Of a stretch of DNA of 64,000 nucleotides, positions 5,922-60,778 are shown one piece after another. The notes below the pieces were generated by a model that had not been told where the DNA came from, did not search any database, and saw only the letters and a program-made list of their open reading frames with translations. Positions within the stretch are counted from its first letter, which is position 1. The number at the start of each line of letters is the position of its first letter. The stretch comes from Ascidiella aspersa. Lineage: Eukaryota. Position numbers and translations under genes: made by a program. The stretch covers positions 7,130,001 through 7,194,000 of the forward strand of contig OZ004614.1 in assembly GCA_963924565.1 (NCBI GenBank), read 5' to 3'.

Positions 5922-5996
5922 AGCCTGCAGTGAGGTTCGAACCCACGACCTCCGGTCATAGCGGGACCGTCGTTCTACCAACTGAGCTACACAGGC
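5922..5996 (-). pseudogene. tRNA-like sequence (tRNA pseudogene or SINE head)
   Basis: Minus strand GCCTGTG TA GCTC AGTTGGTA GAAC GA CGGTC CCGCTAT GACCG GAGGTC GTGGG TTCGAAC CTCAC TGCAGGC T: A and B boxes, cloverleaf and a T5 run just downstream, but C33, a D-stem mismatch and a GCT anticodon without the Ser long variable arm. Confidence 0.75.
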
Positions 5997-7466: not shown

Positions 7467-10124
7467 GTCTATAGATACATGGCGGTTGCTATAAAAAAGC
7501 AAAGCAGCAAGGCGTACAAGTGAGGTCATGTTGTACTCTATTCTTGCTCACCCCTCGTCCGATTTCGTTTCCTTTGTGTGCTTCTATAATTATCCCGCCC
7601 ACTCTGTGGTGTCCTCTGTTCAAACGGGCTCCTGTCTTGCGCGCGCGTGTACACAAAACACCGAAACCCGTCGTTCTCGATTTGAATTTCTTCGCTAGAA
7701 ACCGTATGCTATTTCCGCTCGAAAAACAATTTTAAAGCGCATAGGGTTGTATAAAAATAGGGATTGGTGCAGCCTTTACATGCCAAGTGGTAGTTTCGGT
7801 ACTCTTTCGATACTAGGGTGTTATCGGTGCCGATCCGATACCTAATTAATATTTAAAATTTGGCAATCGTCGGCGATCCAACGTTTCAACTGTATACTTT
7901 GTAAGCCAAATAATAAAAAAATATCAGTTAAAAACCGGAATTAATGTAATCTTTTCAATGCTAAAACAAATTTCTGCCCTAAAACATTGAACTCAATTCG
8001 ATTTTGACCCTCATTTTCGATAACATTTCGAATTTTTTATTCAAGCTCGTTTTTTTTTTTTTCGGGTATCGGTATCAGAATAAAATGCAATATATCGGAT
8101 ATTCCTTTACTAAATGTTATTTTTGTATAGCAACAGAGTGAGTATTTTCTGTCTCCTGTTTTTTCAGAATCAAAAAAGTATGATGGTAACGCTTTTTAAA
8201 CGTGTCTTTAGTACGCCATACTCATTTTTCATTTTATCATCTCTTATCCATTTTCGTCTAGCGCAAAAGCCACACTGTTAAGAATCGCGATTCCATTCGT
8301 GATTTTACGACCTCGCGCCAAATCAACATTACGGCTCGATGCCAACTCTTTATTATTTAATCGCTTCCCGCAGCGATCTAATATTGACCCCCCCTCCCGT
8401 TCAAACTCCCACACGACTTCTCAGGAATGGCAACTATTTCTCCTGGCTAGGTCGGCATAACGCGGGCAATAAGCCGCATGTTTTTTTATCGCTACTAGCT
8501 CTGTGTTCGTTAACTCCTATCTCAAATAGGTAACTGGGCTTTTTTATCTATACACAGCGATAGGAAAACGCGGAAACTGTAAAGGCATTTCGGGAAACCG
8601 ATTTCTTTCACAAATCATTTTTTTGTTGTATGCGGTGAACAATTGAAAGTGCCCAGATACCACTCGAACACGTGGACTGGTATTTTAAATTTTTGCGCAA
8701 AACGGTGTAAACAAGTTCTTAGTTTGTGGATATTCACAACCCTTGTTAGATTTGTAAAGAAGGCCAAAAACTGATTGTAAATTTGCCCAATCAAATACCG
8801 CCCCACGTTCCTGGATAAAACGTTCAAGATTTTTACTTGGATATGCGCATGAAAAATCCAACGAAAAAAACACTTTATACATCTACAAAAATTTCCGAAA
8901 ATCCCGGTGCCATTTAACAGGGTGCCTTGCGTACTTTTCCTTGAAAAAAAAAACAACCACTTGCTACTCATGGCTGCTTAAACTTGTTAAGGAATCAAGT
9001 CCTTTTAACTGGTCAATGCGTCCACACAAAATGTAATAAAGCTCAAAAAAATCATCGCCTGCTAAAGACAGCAAATTGTGTGTGCCGCAAAAGCGGGCGA
9101 ATTCTGGCTTGCCCCGGCGGTAAAAAGGAATGCCGAAAATTCGGCGTGCCGGCTCGTTAGCGAACAAAGAAAGTCGCGTTCCGCCTTGGAAAAAAAGCGG
9201 GCTGAGACGAAAATGCCGCTTGTCATACGCCGATATATTCGACGGCGTCAATTGTTTCGCTTCAGTCGAAATATGTCGATTGACGTGTGTTGCGCGTCGC
9301 CCTGAATAAACCTGCACTTGCTCCTTCTTCCCTCACTCTCTCACGCCCTCTGCCTTTCTCTTTTCTTCTCTCGTTTTTCGCGTTTGGCGTCTGACTCGCA
9401 AACTGCGTCTGCGGTTGAGCTTTTTCGATTTCCGTGAACGGAACTGAAATACCACAGACGCCGTTCGACTTGTTTTTTCCGGTCAATATAAACAGTGGCA
9501 CACTGTCTTACGTTAAATGTCGTTTCAACGGAGTAAAAAAACACAATAAAGATAACAAAAAGGAAAGCCGAACTTAAATCTCTTCTAAAAATCTCTTGAA
9601 AATCTCTTTTTCTCAATATTGTTATTTTTACCCCTCAACGAAATATAAAGTTCTGTTTGGTAATGGGAAATTTAGAGTGTGAGGTTATAATTGCATTCAG
9701 AAGTTGAGTTCGCCTAATTGCTTTAAGCAATGTTAATCGATGATCGTAGCGTTGCAGTAGTTTTCTTTCCCACATTTCTCGCCTTGGGTGGCCGACAGTA
9801 GAACTACGTATTTTGGCGTTCAAGGTTCTGCAAGGACCACAGTGCACTTGTCCCTTATTCTGTTTACCCGCAAGTCAATTTCAGCCTTTAGTGGTTGTCA
9901 TACTTTTTTACATGGCGGACCCCTTCTGCTTTCTTATATTCTGTCGGACCTTTTTAATTTTTTAAACAAGTAAAATAAAAAGGTCACGGTACAATAATTA
10001 CTCTAATGGTCCAATCAATACTCTTGCAAACTACCAACTATACACAAGCTGTGATATGATTGTTATCATTAATACTCACTGAGAAGTATGTGTTACGAAT
10101 AATATAATTTACTATTCTGTGTAA

Positions 10125-10300
10125 ATAGCCGTATTTGTCTAATTCTAAATAGGGTAAGCAGGTGGCACAATTTAAGGCAAATTGTGTTGAATTCTTGACA
10201 AGCTTTCACACAACCGTGCTTTATCATGTCAAAGTAGCTACTTTGCTTGTCTAGAATTTAATACAATTTGTCTTTATATAGCGCCGCTGCCATCTGATTA
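10125..10300 (-). mobile_element. Degenerate family-B hammerhead element with short inverted segment
   Basis: Reverse complement matches 24082-24190 (ctttgacatgataaagcacggttgtgtgaaagcttgtcaagaatt...); core mutated; a + strand partial copy begins ~10245. Confidence 0.6.
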
Positions 10301-17905: not shown

Positions 17906-18260
17906 GCTTGTAAATCAATTGCAAAGCTAAAAAGGTCAGGTAGATATAAGACGTTTTAATACTAGCTTGTATTATCTTCAGTTAATGTGACTGAGAAATA
18001 AATCAAGCTTTACTTATAAAAGGTGGACGCAAGTTTTATCATTTCGAGTTTATATAGTCGGATCTTTAATTAGCCTCTTCAAGGTGTTCAAAAGGTACAG
18101 CGGTGTTGATAAGGCGTCAAGGTTTAATAACTGAAGATAATACAAGCTTGTATCGAAACGTCTTAATCAAGATGATGTCGACCTACTCGAAATTTTTGGC
18201 TTTGTAATTCATGATCAAGCTACATTACATGTCCGTGCATAGTGCAACCAGGTATTATTT
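17906..18260. mobile_element. Inverted pair of family-A hammerhead units in an EXT1 intron
   Basis: + core CTGAAGA at 18131 followed by the same downstream sequence as 60555-60650; inverted copy 17906-17985. Confidence 0.65.
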
Positions 18261-18575: not shown

Positions 18576-21030
18576 AAAAGCGCTCCTGTAGAAGCGAATT
18601 TTGCCATTTCACAAATTCTCGCCTAAACCAACCTTGTTGTGTCTCCGACAACTCCACAGTTCCGGCCTACGCGCGCTCGCTCGCGGTCATCTATGTGCGC
18701 TCACAATGCCGCCATTGTGACGCGATTTCGAGCGCGAGAAGGTGTGTAACGCCTTTCCTGTTTGCTTTAGGGATGATTTTTCGCGCCCGTCGACCTTGGA
18801 TTGGCAAGGCGAGTAAGCGGAGGCTTGTTTAGCCTTGCCAGTTCATCGTTCGGTCGCCGACCACCCCCTTTGCTAATCCTTAAGCAAATAAACCGTCGTT
18901 TTGGTCGGCCTCGTTTTTTTTCTCGAAAAAGCCGCCGCCTAGACAAGGACCATCTGTTTCCGTTTTTTCTTTTTGTTTTCTTCGGGGAAAATCGATTTGC
19001 GCCGAAAAAAAACGCAAAGGGTTTGTCGGGTTAAACGAAATCGCATTTCAATCGCCACAGCGATCCATTTTAATCTGATTTCGTTTTAGTTTTTTATTCG
19101 AAAAAAAATCTTGACGAAGCCTATAGTTTTATGTGGACGCTATGACAGAGTGCTGCGTCCAAAAACCCAATGATAATAACTTTAATGCCAGGTGCGCTAA
19201 AACTTTGAGTTGGCCTCGCGATAGAGTATAACTAAGCCCTGTGGTGCCTAAGAAACGTTGAGGTAAGCAATAGACAAAAAAAAAGAAAGGTGGTCTATTT
19301 GTTCTTGAAATCCGTTTTAGTTATGGCAAAGAAAGTGATTGAAGTATTTTAAAAATAAAATTGCCGTAAGCACAATTGGATAAACTACTCACTACAATCT
19401 TTCAAATTATACGCGGTTCTTAACAGTGAAATATGATTTTTAATTTCATGCTGGGCAAATACGACCGTAAATATTGATATGCAGGTCAAACTTGACATAT
19501 TACAATAAAATGTTCATAATTTCAACCATAGACTTTTGATGGTTATAAGGTGGTTCTATAAAAGTAAGAAAAATCGCTTGGGGGCATAGAAACAAATAAT
19601 TTCGATAACCAATCCTGAAGTGCAAGTTCAAGCAAACTAAAATGCAAAGATGGAAAGGGCATGCTGTTGCGGCCAAAATAACCCTAACCTCCACTCATCC
19701 CCACACATTCGTCATCCCGCCTTACTGGTGATAACGAAACGCCCCGCAGCTCTGTCTTGTGTCTGTCTGGGCTCGCCATATGCCGTTATCTGCTTTCCCT
19801 TCCCTAATGCGCCTTTGCCTTGTCGCTTGGCTCAGCGGTGTACTTCCCCCACGCAAGCAGCCTGCCGTAATGTTAATAAATATGCTGTTGCTACCAGGCA
19901 TAGTACACTAAAAAGAAGCTCTTCCGGCACTTCGTTGTTTAATTCGACGTTTCGGCTATTACTGTACAACATGCCCTCATCAGGGAATGCAAAAACACCA
20001 CGCAAAGTTAAACAACAACAAAAAAAGGAGATAAAAATGTGACAACCAACAAACAAAATGAAAAAAAAAATGAGTTGTTATCTTTTAACACCCGTGTAAT
20101 ATGCAGCTGGAAATAAAATTACTGTCCTAATGTTGTCCGATATTTTTTTGAATCGCAGTTGTGTGGAAGTCGTTTTACATGCCCGTTTTGCTAAGTTATG
20201 TACCCAGCCCAACTGCAAGTTTTTGAAATTTTTCGTAACTGAAATTTCATGGCAGTTTTGTATCAATTGACTCCAGTTGTTTTGACATTTTTTCATTGAC
20301 CTAATCACAATTTATTTTATTTAGGTTCAACTTAAAACTAGGTAGTTGGCTCAACGCGAAAAAACGAAATGTTAATGCTAAAAATCGTGACTCTATATGT
20401 TAAACTGTCCATAAATAACCTCAGTTAAACACATTAGGTTCATGAATATATTAGTTTTTCCGTCGTGTTAGTTTCCCTAATTCACGGAGCCGAAAATTGC
20501 TATTCCACATTTTACCTAAAGTGGTGTTATATATTTTCATACCTTTTTTTGTCTGAAAATATGAAGCAAGTAGCCTTCGATATACACAAAATAAGTGGAA
20601 TTTTAAAGCGTTTCGAGTCCTGCTACCGGTACAAGTTCATTTTGCACCGTTCAGCAAAGCAGACAGGAAAAGTGGCTTGTATGAGGAAAGAGGAAGCAAC
20701 TAGTAACGGCGTTCTTTGTGAAGAATAGCAGGCGCGCCAATCGTCGCCCTGTAAGTGCTAATCCCTTTCCGTCTGCGCTTTCGCACTTAAACCTGTCCCT
20801 TGAACCCCACTCAAGATCTATGATAGATGAGTAAGCAGCGCTTATTGCCACTTCTGCTCGCCCGACTCGCCTAGATTTCTGCAAATGTGGAAATTGTGAA
20901 CAAAGGCCCTTGGTTTACGTGTCCGCTGAGAAAAAAATGGGTTCCTCTGTATTTTTTTGTTTCTTTTTTTACAGGGTGGCAATACTGAAATTAAATGTGA
21001 AAAAAGTTTGATGATAAGGTGCTTTTAAAC

Positions 21031-21939: not shown

Positions 21940-24024
21940 GTAAACGATTTTCCATATTGGCTGTACTTCGCAAGATCTTGTTTGCTTTTACTATGTGCCT
22001 TAAGAGTGAAACCGATTTATTTAATTCCGGGTTAGCCAACACGTCGATCGCGATCGACCGGTCGGTCGACAAATTTTACCTGGTCGATCGCGTCGAATAT
22101 GTGTTACGTCATTACAGTAGCTGTCGCGCACAAGCGGAACATTAAAATGACCATTTGCTGTCTGGACAAGCCTAATACGCGTTCTTTGACGAAACAAATT
22201 AACCTTTATCGCTGGCTTGGAATGCAATTAACGCTCAAAATGTTGAATAAGTGTTCTTGTGACATTTTTCGACCGAACCAGTCGATCGCGAGTCTCTAGA
22301 AATATTTTAGTCCATTTCAATTTAACAAACACCTTTGTTGCAGCTCAGACCATTCAACCAGTGGTTTTCAAAGTGGCACATGCTCCCCAAACGGTTGGGC
22401 ATAGAAAAATTATAAAAAAAAATGGCGGGCATGTTGGTTTCTGTACTGGCACAGAGCAGAAACATATTTTTTGTAACATTTAGTAGTTATGTGTCCTAAT
22501 TGTTTTGAGGACAAAAGTAGGACCTGATTTCTGTGGAACCTGTGCTGTAAATTACCACCTAAATAAGCACTCGTATTTCTCTATTTAAACCTCCACAAGG
22601 CACAATCTGTGGCTGTTGCTAGTTGTATTAAAAAACAGGGAAAAGATGAATTATAGGTTGTATGGCGAACCTATTACGACATTTTAGGTTTCGGAAAAAA
22701 ATAGCCTTAACTTTAATTTTACCACACGTTTGCGTTTTAGTTTATTGACCAACTATTATCTACCCCGGCATAGAAACCAGCTTCTATTTTTCCCAGAGGT
22801 ACAAAACAACGTCACAAACGCAAAATAAAAAACTACGATGCAAAACAGGGTTGAACAAGTAAAAAAAAAACGATTAGCACATCGTTCCAACGAATAACAG
22901 ATCAGCCCGAAGCCTACAAAAGCGCTTGATTTAGGTCTCACGTGTCGTTTTTTTATTAGAGCTGAACTGAATGAAATGAAAAACCACAATGTTATATTTG
23001 CAAGGAACATACGCGACGTGTGTCGTAAAATTTAACTCCACAGTGGTGACAAGGGTTCTGTTGGTTGTCCAATATTGACGTTTCTTGGCTGACTTCCCTT
23101 CCCATGCGCCAGATCGACCTTCTGACGTCAACATTGCGGCGTCATTAAATTTCATGTCATTTTCTTTTTTCTGGTCCGACATGTTATATCAGACTGTTTA
23201 TTCATTACATTGGCAACAGCTACCAATCCATTTTTACTCCCTCTCGTTAGTTATTCCTGGCTGTTTTTCCTAATGTTAGAAATCTAGATCATATCTAATA
23301 AAAACACGTTACGTAAAGAATCAAGTCACTTTTAAATTTTTATTCAATATATGCTACAACATTACCCGAAAAAATATATTTAAAACTTTTTTAAATTGAT
23401 TTTTTCAGTTGTAAATCCAACGTAGATTGTGATTCTGTACATCAGACTTTTAAAGCGATTAAAACACAATGCAGATATAGCGGCGGTCTAAAGTCCTAAA
23501 CGAAGCGAATCCATTACAGTCACCGCCATATATTTTACCCTATAATTGTTTCAAGTACTTCGCCCAATACCACGTCACCTCACTTTGGCGGGAAACAGCT
23601 TGTCGCGGCTATGTAGGCCAATATTTGGGGAGTTGTGTAATTGTGGCGGTGTTGAGTGGATTATGGAAACCCTCGAGAGAGCTGAAGTATCTTGGTTAAA
23701 CATTATCCCTCATTCAGGCGAATTGCACGTGGCAGTGATGTACAGCGAATACCATCTCCCGCCGGGGTTGTTTCAATTTTGAAAACCTTTTTAATGTTTT
23801 ACGAAGTGGCTATGGGTAATAATAGCATACTATAGAGGCCTTCGGGAGGGCTTATCGAAACCAATCGGTCTTACAAGTCACTGAGGGTGTAGATCCTTAA
23901 TATAAATGTTGTATAACAAATGATTTAGTCGCCGTCAATTGAGAAACCTTAAGCTTTTGTGATTTATTACGTTGGTTCCCTAAGTAAAACCAAACTGATA
24001 AATGAAAGTTACTGTAATATTTGG

Positions 24025-24204
24025 TCAGCTTTTGCACAACCGTGCTTCATCAGGTCAAAGTATGACCTTCATCAGTAGAAACTTTGACCTGATGAAGCAC
24101 GGTTGTACGAAAGCTTGTCGAGAATCCAATACTATTTGTCTTTATATAGTGCCACCTGATTCCTCTATTTAGAATTAGACTAATACGGCCATATACAAAG
24201 ATTA
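24025..24204. mobile_element. Inverted hammerhead pair, family B, in an EXT1 intron
   Basis: + copy 24083-24122: tttgac CTGATGA A GCAC ggtt GTAC GAAA GC TT gtcgag; inverted copy 24025-24060; flanks taatatttgg (24015-24024) and taatattttgg (24205-24215). Confidence 0.7.
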
Positions 24205-25294
24205 TAATATTTTGGAAAATTATTTTTGAGCGGTTGTTTATGACATTTGTGCTGTAAAAAGAAAGCTGACAGTTTTTAACATTAGTAACACGATTTCAGA
24301 CCCAAAAAATCCCAATATAGTTGTGTATTTCGTTGTTTCCTTCAAGCTCGCAATTTTATTTGGTTTGTTATGAGAGCCCTACAAGCTTGCAGGACGAGTG
24401 AGAATCGGTCGATATAATCCTACCAGCCAGACCATAACATGACATGAGCGGTAACGGCGCCATTAGCGGGCCACAGTCGCCCTCAAGAATGCTCTTCCAA
24501 CTCGACCGTTCATACACAATACGCATGTTGGAAGTTTGGACGTGACTCTAGTGAACTTACCACAACCCACAACAACGACGCACCTTTTAAAAGTAAAACA
24601 CGCGATCTTTTTAAAACACAGATCGAAATAGGCCTTTGCAATACGCCCGCCATAGTTCACAGTCCGCGAATCGCAGCCGATACCCGATGCCAAGTTGTAG
24701 TGTCTGTACTCGTCCGATACCAAATTAACATTGGAATTTCAGCCTTGGTTTGCCAAGCTGCGGCTTTTATCTTGAAACACAAATTTATCCTAGGTTAACA
24801 ACTATAGAGGTAACTAACTTAATAACAGAAATTTTTGACATATTGAGTTGGAAAAAATTACCTTTAAAAGATTTTTTTTAGCCTATCAATGACGTCATTA
24901 GGTGTCGGATTAGATTTTATCGCAAAACTTTTTATTAGATTTTATCGCAAAACTTTTTTTTTTTAAGTATCGGACATCCCTAGCTCGCAGTATTTCTTTT
25001 CACCTTGCCATCCGTTTCTCAGGCCGCGCCGTAATTTTGCGAAGGCGTTGTCCAATAAAGCGGCCACGTAAAAGTGGCGCCAACAGCCGAGGAAAAGTTT
25101 GCCGCTCCAATAATGGACTTGCCGCTTCCCCGTTGACACGTTAACGACCATACGCTAGCTCTACGTGACCGCAACGGGTTCTATCGCACGTCGTCTTTGT
25201 CATAACACGCTTGCCCCGGCCTTAGCGACTTGTGGGCGTTTGCTCGTAAAATTTTCGCCTTTGTTTATTTTTAGCTTTATTTCAAAAATTTTTT

Positions 25295-25570
25295 TCACCA
25301 GTGAAAACGCGCCAAGCGGCAAAACCGAACCGCCCAGGAATGCCCTTTTCAACTTTTTTTTTTGGGGGGGGGGTGGGGGGGGGGGGTTTGTTTGTGCCCC
25401 TGGACGACTGAATTTTTATCCGTTATTTGAGTCTTTTCTCCAACTTGTGTTTTTTATTTTTCACTTGTGAAAACGCGCCAACGGCAAAACTGAACCGCCC
25501 AGGAATGTCCTTTTTAACGTTTTTTTTTTGGGGGGGGGGGGGGTTAATTGTTTGTGTCCCTGGCTGACTA
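25295..25570 (+). repeat. ~167-bp tandem duplication with T-run/G-run
   Basis: gtgaaaacgcgccaa...aaccgcccaggaatg at 25301 and 25468. Confidence 0.85.
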
Positions 25571-26218
25571 TATGTCACCTGTTTGTTGAATTTTTTTCTT
25601 TTTTTGTGTTTTGAATTGATCTTGCTATTTTCCAACTTTACCATTTAATTAGTCTCTATTTGAATATGCCGTGTATTGTATATTGTATTGATCAGAATAG
25701 TACAGCTAATAAGTCTAAGTGGTCTGAGACTAAATTACCAAAGAATCGCATATCGCAGCAAAATATACATATTCGCGTTACACCGCGATTTGGAAACCTT
25801 TCCAATGGGTCTTGGAATTTAGCTCCAACGGATCGGCCTCTAAACAATCGCCTTTGTTGAGATTCGAACTCACGAACTTAGATTTGCTTAGCTTGCTGTC
25901 GCATCCATAAAGTAGCCCGATTCGGGTTATTCGTCCCAAAGCCGCCCGACGTACAAAAATACAGCAAAACCCCGAAAAAGTGATGTGTAGCCCAGAAAAT
26001 GTTAATAAAACCAATAATTATAATTAACCCCTAGAATAATTGTAGGCTTATTGTAAGTGTAATAAAGCCCCTGGAAAGTTTAACCCATCCATTCTCAAAC
26101 AATAGGTTAGTAAACCATCAATAAAAATTTAAATTTCAAATTAATAACGTAAAATCATAAAAAGCTTATAAAAAAGAACGATAAAACGTGGTAAAATTAT
26201 GAACAAAAGCCTATAAAC

Positions 26219-26631
26219 CAGGGCTTTGGAGCAGACGTAATAAATGTTGAATTGCTCTGGCTCATGCTCCGGAGCTCTCTTTTATCATAGGTTAGCTCCA
26301 GCTTCAGCTCCGGAGCTTAATGATACCACTGCTCCGGCTCCATGGTTTAAGGATGAACGATTAATTTGCAATATCTAGCGTTTCAAAATAATCACAAACA
26401 AAACACCACAATGGTTAGTTAGAAAAAGTGACGCCAAAAAGGCAACAATTCTTAATTTTGTGAAGGGTTGCGAATTCAGCCATTAGTAATAGCATAGCAT
26501 CTTATAAAATACATCGGAGCCGGAGCTATTTTTTTAAACAACTGGCTCCAGCTACATTTGAATTTAACGTTGAGCTCCGGCTCCAGCTCCGTTAAAAATG
26601 CACGGCTCCGGGGCTCAGGCAAAAAGCCCTG
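26219..26631. mobile_element. hAT-like MITE with ggctcc/ggagc subterminal repeats
   Basis: TIR cagggcttt / aaagccctg; TSD ctataaac / ctgtaaac. Confidence 0.8.
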
Positions 26632-26674
26632 CTGTAAACCCAAAAATCTTAACGAGGCCTCATTTCTCGCGCAG

Positions 26675-26875
26675 ATCGTGATCCTGTGGCACTGCGGAGG
26701 CCCCCCTCCCCCAGACACGAGGTGGCGCAACTTGGCCATGCAGAGGGAGTCGATTCCAATCGTTGTGATTGACGACAAGCCCAAGCTGATGGGCAGGCGG
26801 TTCTTCCCCTTCAGTGAGATTCGACACGAGGTGGTGCTGAGCTTGGACGACGATACGACGCTTAACATACAGGAG
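26675..26875 (+). CDS. EXT1: EXT1-like exon (human exons 7+8 fused; contains DxD motif)
   Basis: cag|ATC...GAG|gttagt; 201 nt; IVILWHCGGPPPPDTRWRNLAMQRESIPIVVIDDKPKLMGRRFFPFSEIRHEVVLSLDDDTTLNIQE. Confidence 0.94.
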
Positions 26876-28583: not shown

Positions 28584-28640
28584 TATACTGGCATCGTCAA
28601 TTAAGGAACTGACGATGCCAGCATAGGCGAAATATATATC
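28584..28640 (+). ncRNA. Hammerhead-like motif (family D) with upstream inverted partial copy
   Basis: CTGACGA(28609)-T-GCC agcata GGC-GAAA-TA-TA; 28584-28602 is the reverse complement of 28607-28625 with 2 mismatches; stem I weak. Confidence 0.4.
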
Positions 28641-29944
28641 CCTTTAACAAAGGGTAAAAATGTTCGAAAATCCTCAATAAACATCGAAAGCCCATTCCGT
28701 TCCGCCCGGCCCACACCCATGCCCCACCCCCAATTCTTAAGTCGGTAAATCTTCGTCGAACGAAAATAACTCGTTGCAGACTTTATTTTGACTCGCTCCC
28801 CTGAAGCTCAATGCTCGCCACGTCTCCGCTGAGTCATTGCCTTCTGACAGTGACTAATACACACAGGCACCGCAAAGCCAAGGCCAGACAGCCGCAGTTT
28901 ACCTGGCCAACTCGATAAACGCCTACCAAAGGCTTCCATTTCGCTTCGAAAACGGTACTACATCCTTTCTGACAAAATGGATTGAGCTTTCGCAGTTAAA
29001 AGAAGGCGTGATTTTGGAGGGTGGGGTGGCTTTTACCCAAGCATTTTGACTTACTGAGTGATAGAAAAAGCCACGAATCCTGGGATATAAAACTGTGTTG
29101 CGCTTTTGTAAGGCGCCAATTAAACTGGCCCGTTTTTTGTGGCCTGGCCTCATGTCTCGTTTTTCCAAAGCGTGTTGCTCGACGACTGATGAGTAATTTC
29201 AAGGTACAGGTTGGAGAGCGCCGGGTTTTTTACCAACCACTCGATATTTGCGATAGGATAATTTGGTGTCGACGTGTGCCTTTTTCAAATAAATGCCAGC
29301 TGCTAACTTTGGAAGCTCAAGATTATGTTCATAGCCCCCGCCCCTTGTACCTATACTTCACAATTGAAAAACACTGTTGTTATAGGATAGCCACTGTAAC
29401 ATCCATAAAAAATGTGTCTGATATCTTTTTTACCCATCTTTACAGTTTAATCAAGTGATTATCCAACTTCTTGCGGCCCACTGAGACATTTAAAAAACAT
29501 TACCCCAACAATTTTTCTCAAAATATGTTGCTTTAAAACGTTTTGTATTACCAACTGTAAAGAGCGATGTGTGGTGTGTCCTTTTTTAGAAAAAAATCTG
29601 ATTAAAAGGATTTTTTGTCGTTTTCAAGTACAGCCCTATTTCGTTGTCGATTTAAACACATATCTTTCGTTTATAGTTTGTTTAATTTCTGTCAGAGCAG
29701 AAACAACTACATTTCCAAAACCAAAATATTTAACGGACAAGATTAGTTTATATGCTTTTCCATCGAACATTAAAAAAAAGAAAGCAGGATTCGTTTCTCG
29801 CGTGCTTGTAGTGTATATACCCATCGGTAATACTAAAATATTTAATTAAAAAAGTTCTGCGGCACCCCTAAAAACCCTTAAAAAAATAACAGTTGTACAA
29901 CCACAGGTTTATATACCGTCCATCGTTCCAAGATTAGTTTAAAT

Positions 29945-59821: not shown

Positions 59822-60043
59822 ATTTAAAACAACAGGTTCCTCTGGCAATATATATTATTTTCCACCAACGTTTCGGCTTACTATCCGGCAAGCCTTCGTC
59901 AGGGACTGACACACAAAGCCAACAAAACGCAGTCCCTGACGAAGGTTTGCCGGATAGTAAGCCAAAACGTTGGTAGAAAATAATATATATTGCCAGAGGA
60001 ACCTGTTTTAAATATACTATGCCTGGTAGCAACAGCATATTTA
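59822..60043. mobile_element. Palindromic hammerhead-containing insertion, family C (inverted pLTR-like)
   Basis: ~87-bp inverted arms (59821-59908 / 59930-60014), each with CTGACGA-A-GG(C/T)TTGC cggata GTAAGCC-(G/A)AAA-CG-TT; 13-bp direct repeat ttataaaacacat at 59809-59821 and 60044-60056. Confidence 0.75.
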
Positions 60044-60518: not shown

Positions 60519-60558
60519 TTAACTGAAGATGATACAAGCTCGTATCGAAACGTCTTAA
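60519..60558 (+). ncRNA. Minimal type-I hammerhead ribozyme motif
   Basis: Stem I UUAA/UUAA, CUGAAGA, extra U, 5-bp stem II, GAAA, palindromic ACGU stem III, GUC cleavage triplet (cut after 60554). Confidence 0.7.
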
Positions 60559-60778
60559 TAATCAAGATGATGTCGATCTACTCAACCTTTTTAGCTTTGC
60601 AATTTATTATCAAGCTACATTACAGATCCGTGCACAGTGTACCCAAGTATATTGGTATCTATTACGGTAAAGCATTTAAATTAACTGAAGATGATACAAG
60701 CTCGTATCGAAACGTCTTAGTAATCTAGATCGTGTCGATCTACTCGACCTGTGGACTTTGTAATTTATTATCAAGCTA
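60521..60778 (+). mobile_element. Hammerhead-containing retrozyme/Penelope-like insertion, family A (1.6 tandem units of ~162 nt)
   Basis: Two cores CTGAAGA-T-GATAC aagctc GTATC-GAAA-CG-TC at 60523 and 60685; direct repeat ctatattttgttt at 60508-60520 and 60776-60788. Confidence 0.75.
60680..60721 (+). ncRNA. Minimal type-I hammerhead ribozyme motif (second tandem copy)
   Basis: Same core as at 60523; stem I AUUAA/UUAGU; predicted cut after 60716. Confidence 0.7.

Follow-up and report, generated by a model that had tools for sequence, protein, structure and literature searches.

Insertions of Penelope-like elements (PLEs) typically consist of inverted, 5'-truncated copies with an optional tail of 30-40 bp and target-site duplications (TSDs), as set out in PMC8557442 and PMC3846280. 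Two ends with an optional tail are also described for PLEs in PMC11167929 and PMC8557442, and a CX2-5CxxC linker between the reverse transcriptase (RT) and the endonuclease is given as a trait of the Neptune and Nematis elements (PMC8557442). The minimal hammerhead ribozymes of metazoans are reported to be inactive as monomers and to have low activity as dimers, and opposite-strand pairs of such motifs have already been noted in Schistosoma (PMC4209133). For the element of Anolis, two reverse-transcription start sites were found in vitro, together with nicking and extension of both strands of AT-rich DNA; its hammerhead needed the protein of the element and was dispensable for insertion (PMC11167929). 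Further context is provided by PMC2377424.

The present work concerns a hammerhead motif in the window (the whole stretch of DNA that was analysed, 64 kb of an Ascidiella aspersa contig). The motif very probably belongs to a 5'-truncated, head-to-head insertion of a PLE end in an intron of EXT1, and the hammerhead carried within it is predicted to be a non-cutting passenger.

Results

Anatomy of the hammerhead motif

The motif occupies 24083-24122 on the plus strand (core 24089-24116) and was assigned from its sequence, from a descriptor with a shuffle control and from folding energies. A sequence-only reading had described a 6-bp stem I, a mismatched 4-bp stem II and an AGCU stem III, and this description is confirmed base by base. 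Stem I joins 24083-24088 (TTTGAC) to 24117-24122 (GTCGAG) through 6 bp, 3 of them G-U; it closes the 5' and 3' ends and is present when the structure of the motif alone is predicted. The CTGATGA segment (24089-24095) is followed by an extra A (24096) and then by stem II (24097-24100/24105-24108), a 4-bp helix capped by a GGTT loop. Its C-A mismatch (24098/24107), at 10.2/11.2, adjoins an intact G10.1-C11.1 pair. Beyond this helix lie GAAA (24109-24112), the AGCT palindrome (24112-24115) and U17 (24116). The core pattern CUGANGA...GAAA...UH is found at 24089-24095, 24109-24112 and 24115-24116, and the predicted cleavage site falls after 24116, which is +28 in the family numbering (C3 of CUGAUGA, at 24089, is +1). 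Stem III consists of the AGCU palindrome only, with no loop; it allows a dimer to be drawn, although folding does not predict this as the minimum.

The hammerhead descriptor gave three matches in the 64-kb window, whereas 200 dinucleotide shuffles averaged 0.04 matches, with at most 1 in any of them; the loose hammerhead pattern alone was not significant (10 matches versus 4.66). A search of Rfam returned no hammerhead match at the gathering score or at E<=10, a silence that fits a minimal variant lacking a stem III loop. Matches to Rfam miRNA families at E<=10 were rejected, as they lie far below the gathering score and reflect the hairpin. On sequence grounds, the motif is a real hammerhead-type core of the minimal type I.

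Other hammerhead-like sequences are present in the window. A repeat family with a CUGAAGA core and a longer stem II occurs on the plus strand at 18131-18168, 60523-60563 and 60685-60725, the last two copies being in tandem, 162 nt apart. Additional cores with other sequences are located at 19940-19983 (minus strand), 59867-59902 (minus strand) and 28609-28646 (plus strand), the last of which passes the strict hammerhead descriptor.

Host intron in EXT1

By homology, the host of the insertion is a 4,735-nt EXT1 intron in phase 0 with GT..AG ends (21940-26674, plus strand). The upstream exon extends to 21939 and the downstream exon begins at 26675, which places the element in the intron, on the sense strand. 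The earlier statement that the hammerhead is intronic and co-oriented with EXT1 is therefore upheld, with EXT1 on the plus strand. Exons at 3.6-3.85 kb and 26.7-26.9 kb correspond to the Pfam GT47 and GT64 matches. The best human match of both exons is EXT1 (PDB matches, E 3.6e-30 and 2.8e-13); EXT2 is weaker for the same two exons (6.7e-16 and 1e-5), and EXTL3 is also poorer than EXT1. A protein search with the GT64 exon gave no match, and the gene was named via the PDB matches instead. The exons flanking the intron read ...TVACGQ and IVILWH..., for which the human EXT1 counterpart is SQYCAQ/IIVLW. In one same-species RNA run, of which about 6% was read, EXT1 exon depth was near 1 and no EXT1 splice joint was among the joints listed. 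This run is too shallow for splice joints, and the position of the intron thus rests on homology. A tRNA-like match within the EXT1 gene span (5922-5996, minus strand, Rfam 38.3 bits) is possibly the head of a tRNA-derived repeat.

Identity of the repeat family

In the 309-Mb genome, exact matches to a 26-nt core probe number 413, against 0 for its reversed control; those to a 3' probe number 384, with both arms counted in each case. Longer copies extend upstream, via a 3' UTR of about 185 nt, into a frame that encodes an RT plus a GIY-YIG endonuclease at the C terminus. In copy L136 (RVT_1, E 3e-10; GIY-YIG, E 2.3e-07), the stop lies about 185 nt upstream of the core. The GIY-YIG frame is also present in copy L063, and the translations of both copies contain a C-x4-C-x2-C linker between the RT and the endonuclease. 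The sense arm of the insertion shares 94% identity with the 3' end that follows the GIY-YIG frame in L063. Because the longer copies are contiguous with the RT and GIY-YIG frame and the sense arm shares this identity, the insertion is assigned to the truncated 3' end (pseudo-LTR plus tail) of an endonuclease-bearing Penelope-like retroelement. The clade, going by the linker only, would be Neptune/Nematis-like. A full-length autonomous copy was sought in the genome and none was found, the longest copy, L136, being 5'-truncated and frameshifted.

Several other family copies have features of their own. A second copy in the window (10106-10285), which is 83% identical and older, lies antisense to EXT1, has a core mutated at C3 and G8, and is accompanied by a short opposite arm of its own, which begins near +25. 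In L063, the AUG in CUGAUGA opens a short frame (2823-2907) that runs through the pseudo-LTR end; in the Anolis element, the ORF starts at the ribozyme. Copy L124 (contig C1, 14819455-14822810) adjoins RT/RNase H- and integrase-like frames that look like an LTR retrotransposon. Finally, L085, L096, L097, L107, L108 and L246 (contig C2) contain 2 or 3 head-to-tail 46-nt hammerhead repeats (-5..+40). This derived tandem unit sits behind an inverted tail arm with the same junction at at least 6 loci, and its tandem cores could form dimers in cis, which would make them better candidates for real cleavage than the EXT1-intron copy.

Architecture of the insertion

The insertion is 176 bp in length and has no coding sequence. 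It is bounded by a 12-nt left TSD (24013-24024) and a 13-nt right TSD (24203-24215) that match with one mismatch and one indel; the imperfect TSD of about 10 bp reported previously is borne out, at 12/13 nt. Between the TSDs, an inverted 5' arm of the element (24027-24063, minus strand, family positions -9 to +27) is followed by a junction filler (24064-24080), composed of antisense element pieces as judged by a 22-nt direct repeat and predicted pairing, and by a sense arm (24081-24202, plus strand, -7 to about +116) comprising the 5'-truncated pseudo-LTR end and a tail of about 35 nt. The segments 24027-24061 and 24081-24115, each 35 nt long and 19 nt apart, are complementary at 33/35 positions (94%), and the resulting hairpin has a folding z-score of -9.66. 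The inverted copy had been described as partial and 21 nt upstream. The spacing is correct when counted to the first stem I base; the word partial does not stand, as the arm spans the ribozyme from the 5' strand of stem I onwards and stops a single base short of the cleavage site. In the minus-strand core of this arm, G12 is changed to A (24033) and the 3' strand of stem I is missing. A second antisense mini-arm of 9 nt (24067-24075), absent from the earlier description, is complementary to the core at 24089-24097. The arms differ at 2/35 sites and the TSDs at 2; independent changes in both arms and TSDs are as expected from neutral decay.

At least two DNA data sets contain the insertion junctions, with the right side at about full single-copy depth, and the insertion is thus not a rare private allele. 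One of these data sets may be the source of the assembly. No empty-site allele was found among the junction joints listed in the read data. In data set X2, the left-junction contig (23860-24054) has a depth of 55.9, about half that of the right-junction contig (91.8), and a second haplotype may differ on the left side of the insertion.

Inverted arms across the family

Ninety loci, a few of which are segmental duplicates, were drawn from the first 100 of the 413 core matches. A head-to-head inverted arm is present at 51 of these and absent at 39. The arm covers at least 20 of the 26 core bases at 27 loci, part of the core at 6 and none of it at 18, and the hairpins of many family loci are longer (80-300 bp) than that in EXT1. 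An independent set took in every arm on contigs C1 and C2 with an exact match to a probe 3' of the ribozyme, 98 in total. The 3' ends of these arms fall into two groups, with 55 at +72..+86 and 38 at +109..+117 (tail), and a TSD of 9-17 nt stands next to both ends in 18 cases. The two groups agree with the pair of reverse-transcription start sites found in vitro for the Anolis element (PMC11167929). The cleavage site is spanned by 82 of the 98 arms, which argues that these were copied from uncut RNA. The inverted arm in EXT1 is likely the usual inverted pseudo-LTR of a PLE insertion, with its variable ends, and would be a common by-product rather than an evolved switch.

Arm ends as a possible record of RNA ends

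The 5' ends of the arms accumulate at -15..-5, just upstream of stem I and equivalent to 24073-24083 in the window: 33 of 98 end here, whereas the bins on either side hold 7 and 3 (p 7e-9 versus a flat spread; about two of the 33 are duplicates). The same zone holds the ends of 7 of the 18 TSD-bounded solo copies and of both arms in the EXT1 intron (-9 and -7). This pile-up may reflect a transcript start, a stall or AT microhomology. A candidate initiator-like motif, TCATTT, is located at -15..-10, and 47 RNA reads continue upstream of the pile-up. No report of such a 5'-end pile-up was found in the available parts of the literature searched.

The inverted arm in the EXT1 intron begins at +27, with 1 nt between it and the cleavage site and two bases between it and the TSD. 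One reading of these ends is that the pile-up marks a transcript start and that the inverted arm was primed on the 3' end of hammerhead-cleaved RNA. If true, this would be a genomic footprint of hammerhead cleavage in a putative role in Penelope transposition. A hand tally points in this direction, with 8 of 17 short arms ending at +25..+28 (p 0.04, in a window chosen after the fact); the 17 are what is left of 86 rows once duplicates and rows in which family sequence resumes were dropped by hand. However, none of the 98 arms starts at +29..+31, where cleavage would leave its footprint at 5' ends, and the 82 that read through the site are also at odds with a cleaved template. Short arms bounded by TSDs have other ends as well (+21 to +60), and the same picture could arise from the AAGCTT palindrome or from AT microhomology. 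Priming on cleaved RNA is therefore considered unlikely, and copying from uncleaved RNA is retained below.

Predicted activity of the intronic hammerhead

The hammerhead of the EXT1-intron copy is modelled as an inactive passenger. In nearest-neighbour predictions, adoption of the ribozyme fold would cost 44.4 kcal/mol in the whole insertion, 4.7 kcal/mol without both arms and 1.4 kcal/mol in a typical solo copy of the family. The predicted pairing probability between core and arm is at least 0.999 in a 1.4-kb context. The proposal that the upstream antisense arm sequesters the core thus agrees with the model, in which pairing is complete, and the sequestration is likely real as a structure. 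In addition, stem II is predicted to be unstable in this copy as assembled (+3.1 kcal/mol versus -3.6 kcal/mol for the family form, 6.7 kcal/mol having been lost by mutation). A stable stem II is thus a property of the family that the EXT1-intron copy lacks because of its C-A mismatch. The A at 24107 recurs in 2 of the first 100 core matches listed, and 93 of 106 family RNA reads carry the pairing base at this position. One locus-bridging contig has a second difference of unlisted position; this might be 24107, and the stem II defect may thus be allele-specific.

The further claim that the intron could be cleaved after 24116 finds no support, given the predicted instability of stem II and a model without a predicted ON state. 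Deletion of 24025-24060, which had been suggested as a control, would not free the core, because 24067-24075 is predicted by folding to remain paired with it and the ribozyme fold would still cost 9.8 kcal/mol. The active dimer is disfavoured by the same energy model even for the intact family form (-19.1 versus -28.2 kcal/mol), and the energies alone consequently cannot show inactivity. No pile-up of read ends was seen at 24116/24117 in the one RNA run, which has no reads bearing unique flanks at this locus and so cannot show an absence of cutting in the EXT1 intron. The 165 RNA reads on the element likewise have no unique flank and are for this reason family reads.

Discussion

Family membership, copy number, the anatomy of arms and TSDs and the homology-based intron position form the observed ground from which we infer an origin and fate for this insertion. 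The protein of the element would nick both strands of an AT-rich target, and uncleaved element RNA would be copied from internal start sites, with the tail (+116) as the origin of one cDNA and a site at about +27 as that of the other. The two cDNAs would each stop just 5' of stem I and would be joined head to head via templated filler, leaving an inverted repeat between TSDs. In the EXT1 pre-mRNA, transcription would reach the antisense arm before the core, which would then be enclosed in a 35-bp hairpin. Were this arm removed, the motif would still need a dimer partner and would have a broken stem II. Given the hairpin, the dimer requirement and the broken stem II, splicing likely removes the intron uncut, and neutral decay of the copy is likely.

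The sequence-only reading saw in the arm a built-in off switch, and an active intronic ribozyme regulated in this way on the EXT1 pre-mRNA would draw on the intact, co-oriented core, on an arm predicted to cover all of it at a probability of at least 0.999, and on an insertion found in more than one DNA data set. For a switch, both an ON state and some sign of selection would be needed; neither of them is observed. The predicted cost of release is 44 kcal/mol, stem II is broken and stem III has no loop. The arm is common, being present at 51/90 loci and in the same layout at 27/90. No second sense copy of the family lies in the window to serve as a dimer partner, since that at 10106-10285 is antisense and core-mutated. 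The lack of read ends at the cleavage site points the same way, weakly, as it comes from one RNA run without reads from this locus. A regulatory switch is accordingly regarded as extremely improbable.

Two other accounts concern what the silenced motif might reveal or do. Intact sense hammerheads in introns could be mildly harmful, with the persisting copies enriched for those silenced by arms or mutations. In agreement with such a filter, the sense intronic copy is silenced three ways, the other intronic copy is antisense and core-mutated, and tandem-hammerhead retrozymes are reported in a preprint to be excluded from introns (10.64898/2026.07.22.740005). Two copies are nevertheless no sample, and monomeric minimal hammerheads are reported inactive anyway (PMC4209133), and selection of this kind is regarded as unlikely. 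It is less probable still that the 35-bp hairpin matters as double-stranded RNA, either as a Dicer or ADAR substrate or as an antisense trap for family RNAs. The z-score of the hairpin and the prediction that the arm binds in trans to a hammerhead of the family (-95.5 versus -85.9 kcal/mol) would allow for this, but the longer hairpins at many family loci mean that the one in the EXT1 intron adds little, and no locus-specific reads appear in the one RNA run. A passenger hammerhead in a truncated PLE end remains the preferred explanation.

The EXT1-intron copy itself matters little, as one of hundreds of Penelope-like stubs. It shows how insertion geometry alone can mimic a designed antisense switch. 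Had an intron of a heparan-sulfate polymerase gene truly held a ribozyme under an antisense lock, this would have been notable, but the evidence argues against it. What hammerheads do in Penelope elements is an open question to which the family can contribute to some extent, since its many young copies let RNA ends be read from insertion ends.

Comparison with described systems places the family close to known elements. The hammerheads in the pseudo-LTRs of metazoan PLEs (Cervera and De la Pena 2014, PMC4209133; review PMC6765202) share the type I layout, the 6-bp stem I, the G10.1-C11.1 pair, the unpaired base between 9 and 10.1, the palindromic 15.2-16.2 segment without loop 3 and the pseudo-LTR location. 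They also occur mostly as solo truncated copies, with some opposite-strand pairs. Stem II is 4 bp here, and mismatched in the EXT1-intron copy, as compared with 7-8 bp in the minimal motifs of S. mansoni (PMC4209133). Endonuclease-bearing PLEs (PMC8557442), including Pen2/Pen2a of A. vaga (PMC3846280), have the same head-to-head arm with a tail on one arm only, TSDs of about 9-15 bp, strong 5' truncation and an RT followed by GIY-YIG. Unlike these, the EXT1-intron copy is only 176 bp long and non-coding, and its inverted arm starts at +27, whereas +80 or +116 is usual. The element Poseidon of Anolis carolinensis (PAc; Frangieh et al. 2024, PMC11167929) has the same two 3' ends about 35 nt apart, AT-rich targets and copies made from uncleaved RNA; in contrast to PAc, the Ascidiella aspersa family has the C-x4-C-x2-C linker before the endonuclease. 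Non-LTR retrozymes (10.64898/2026.07.22.740005) are likewise non-coding and PLE-related with a type I hammerhead, whereas the EXT1 locus has no tandem units and consists of a single sense unit, a one-off truncated insertion with an autonomous-type parent. The family belongs to an already known kind of element, and its copy in the EXT1 intron is likely silent.
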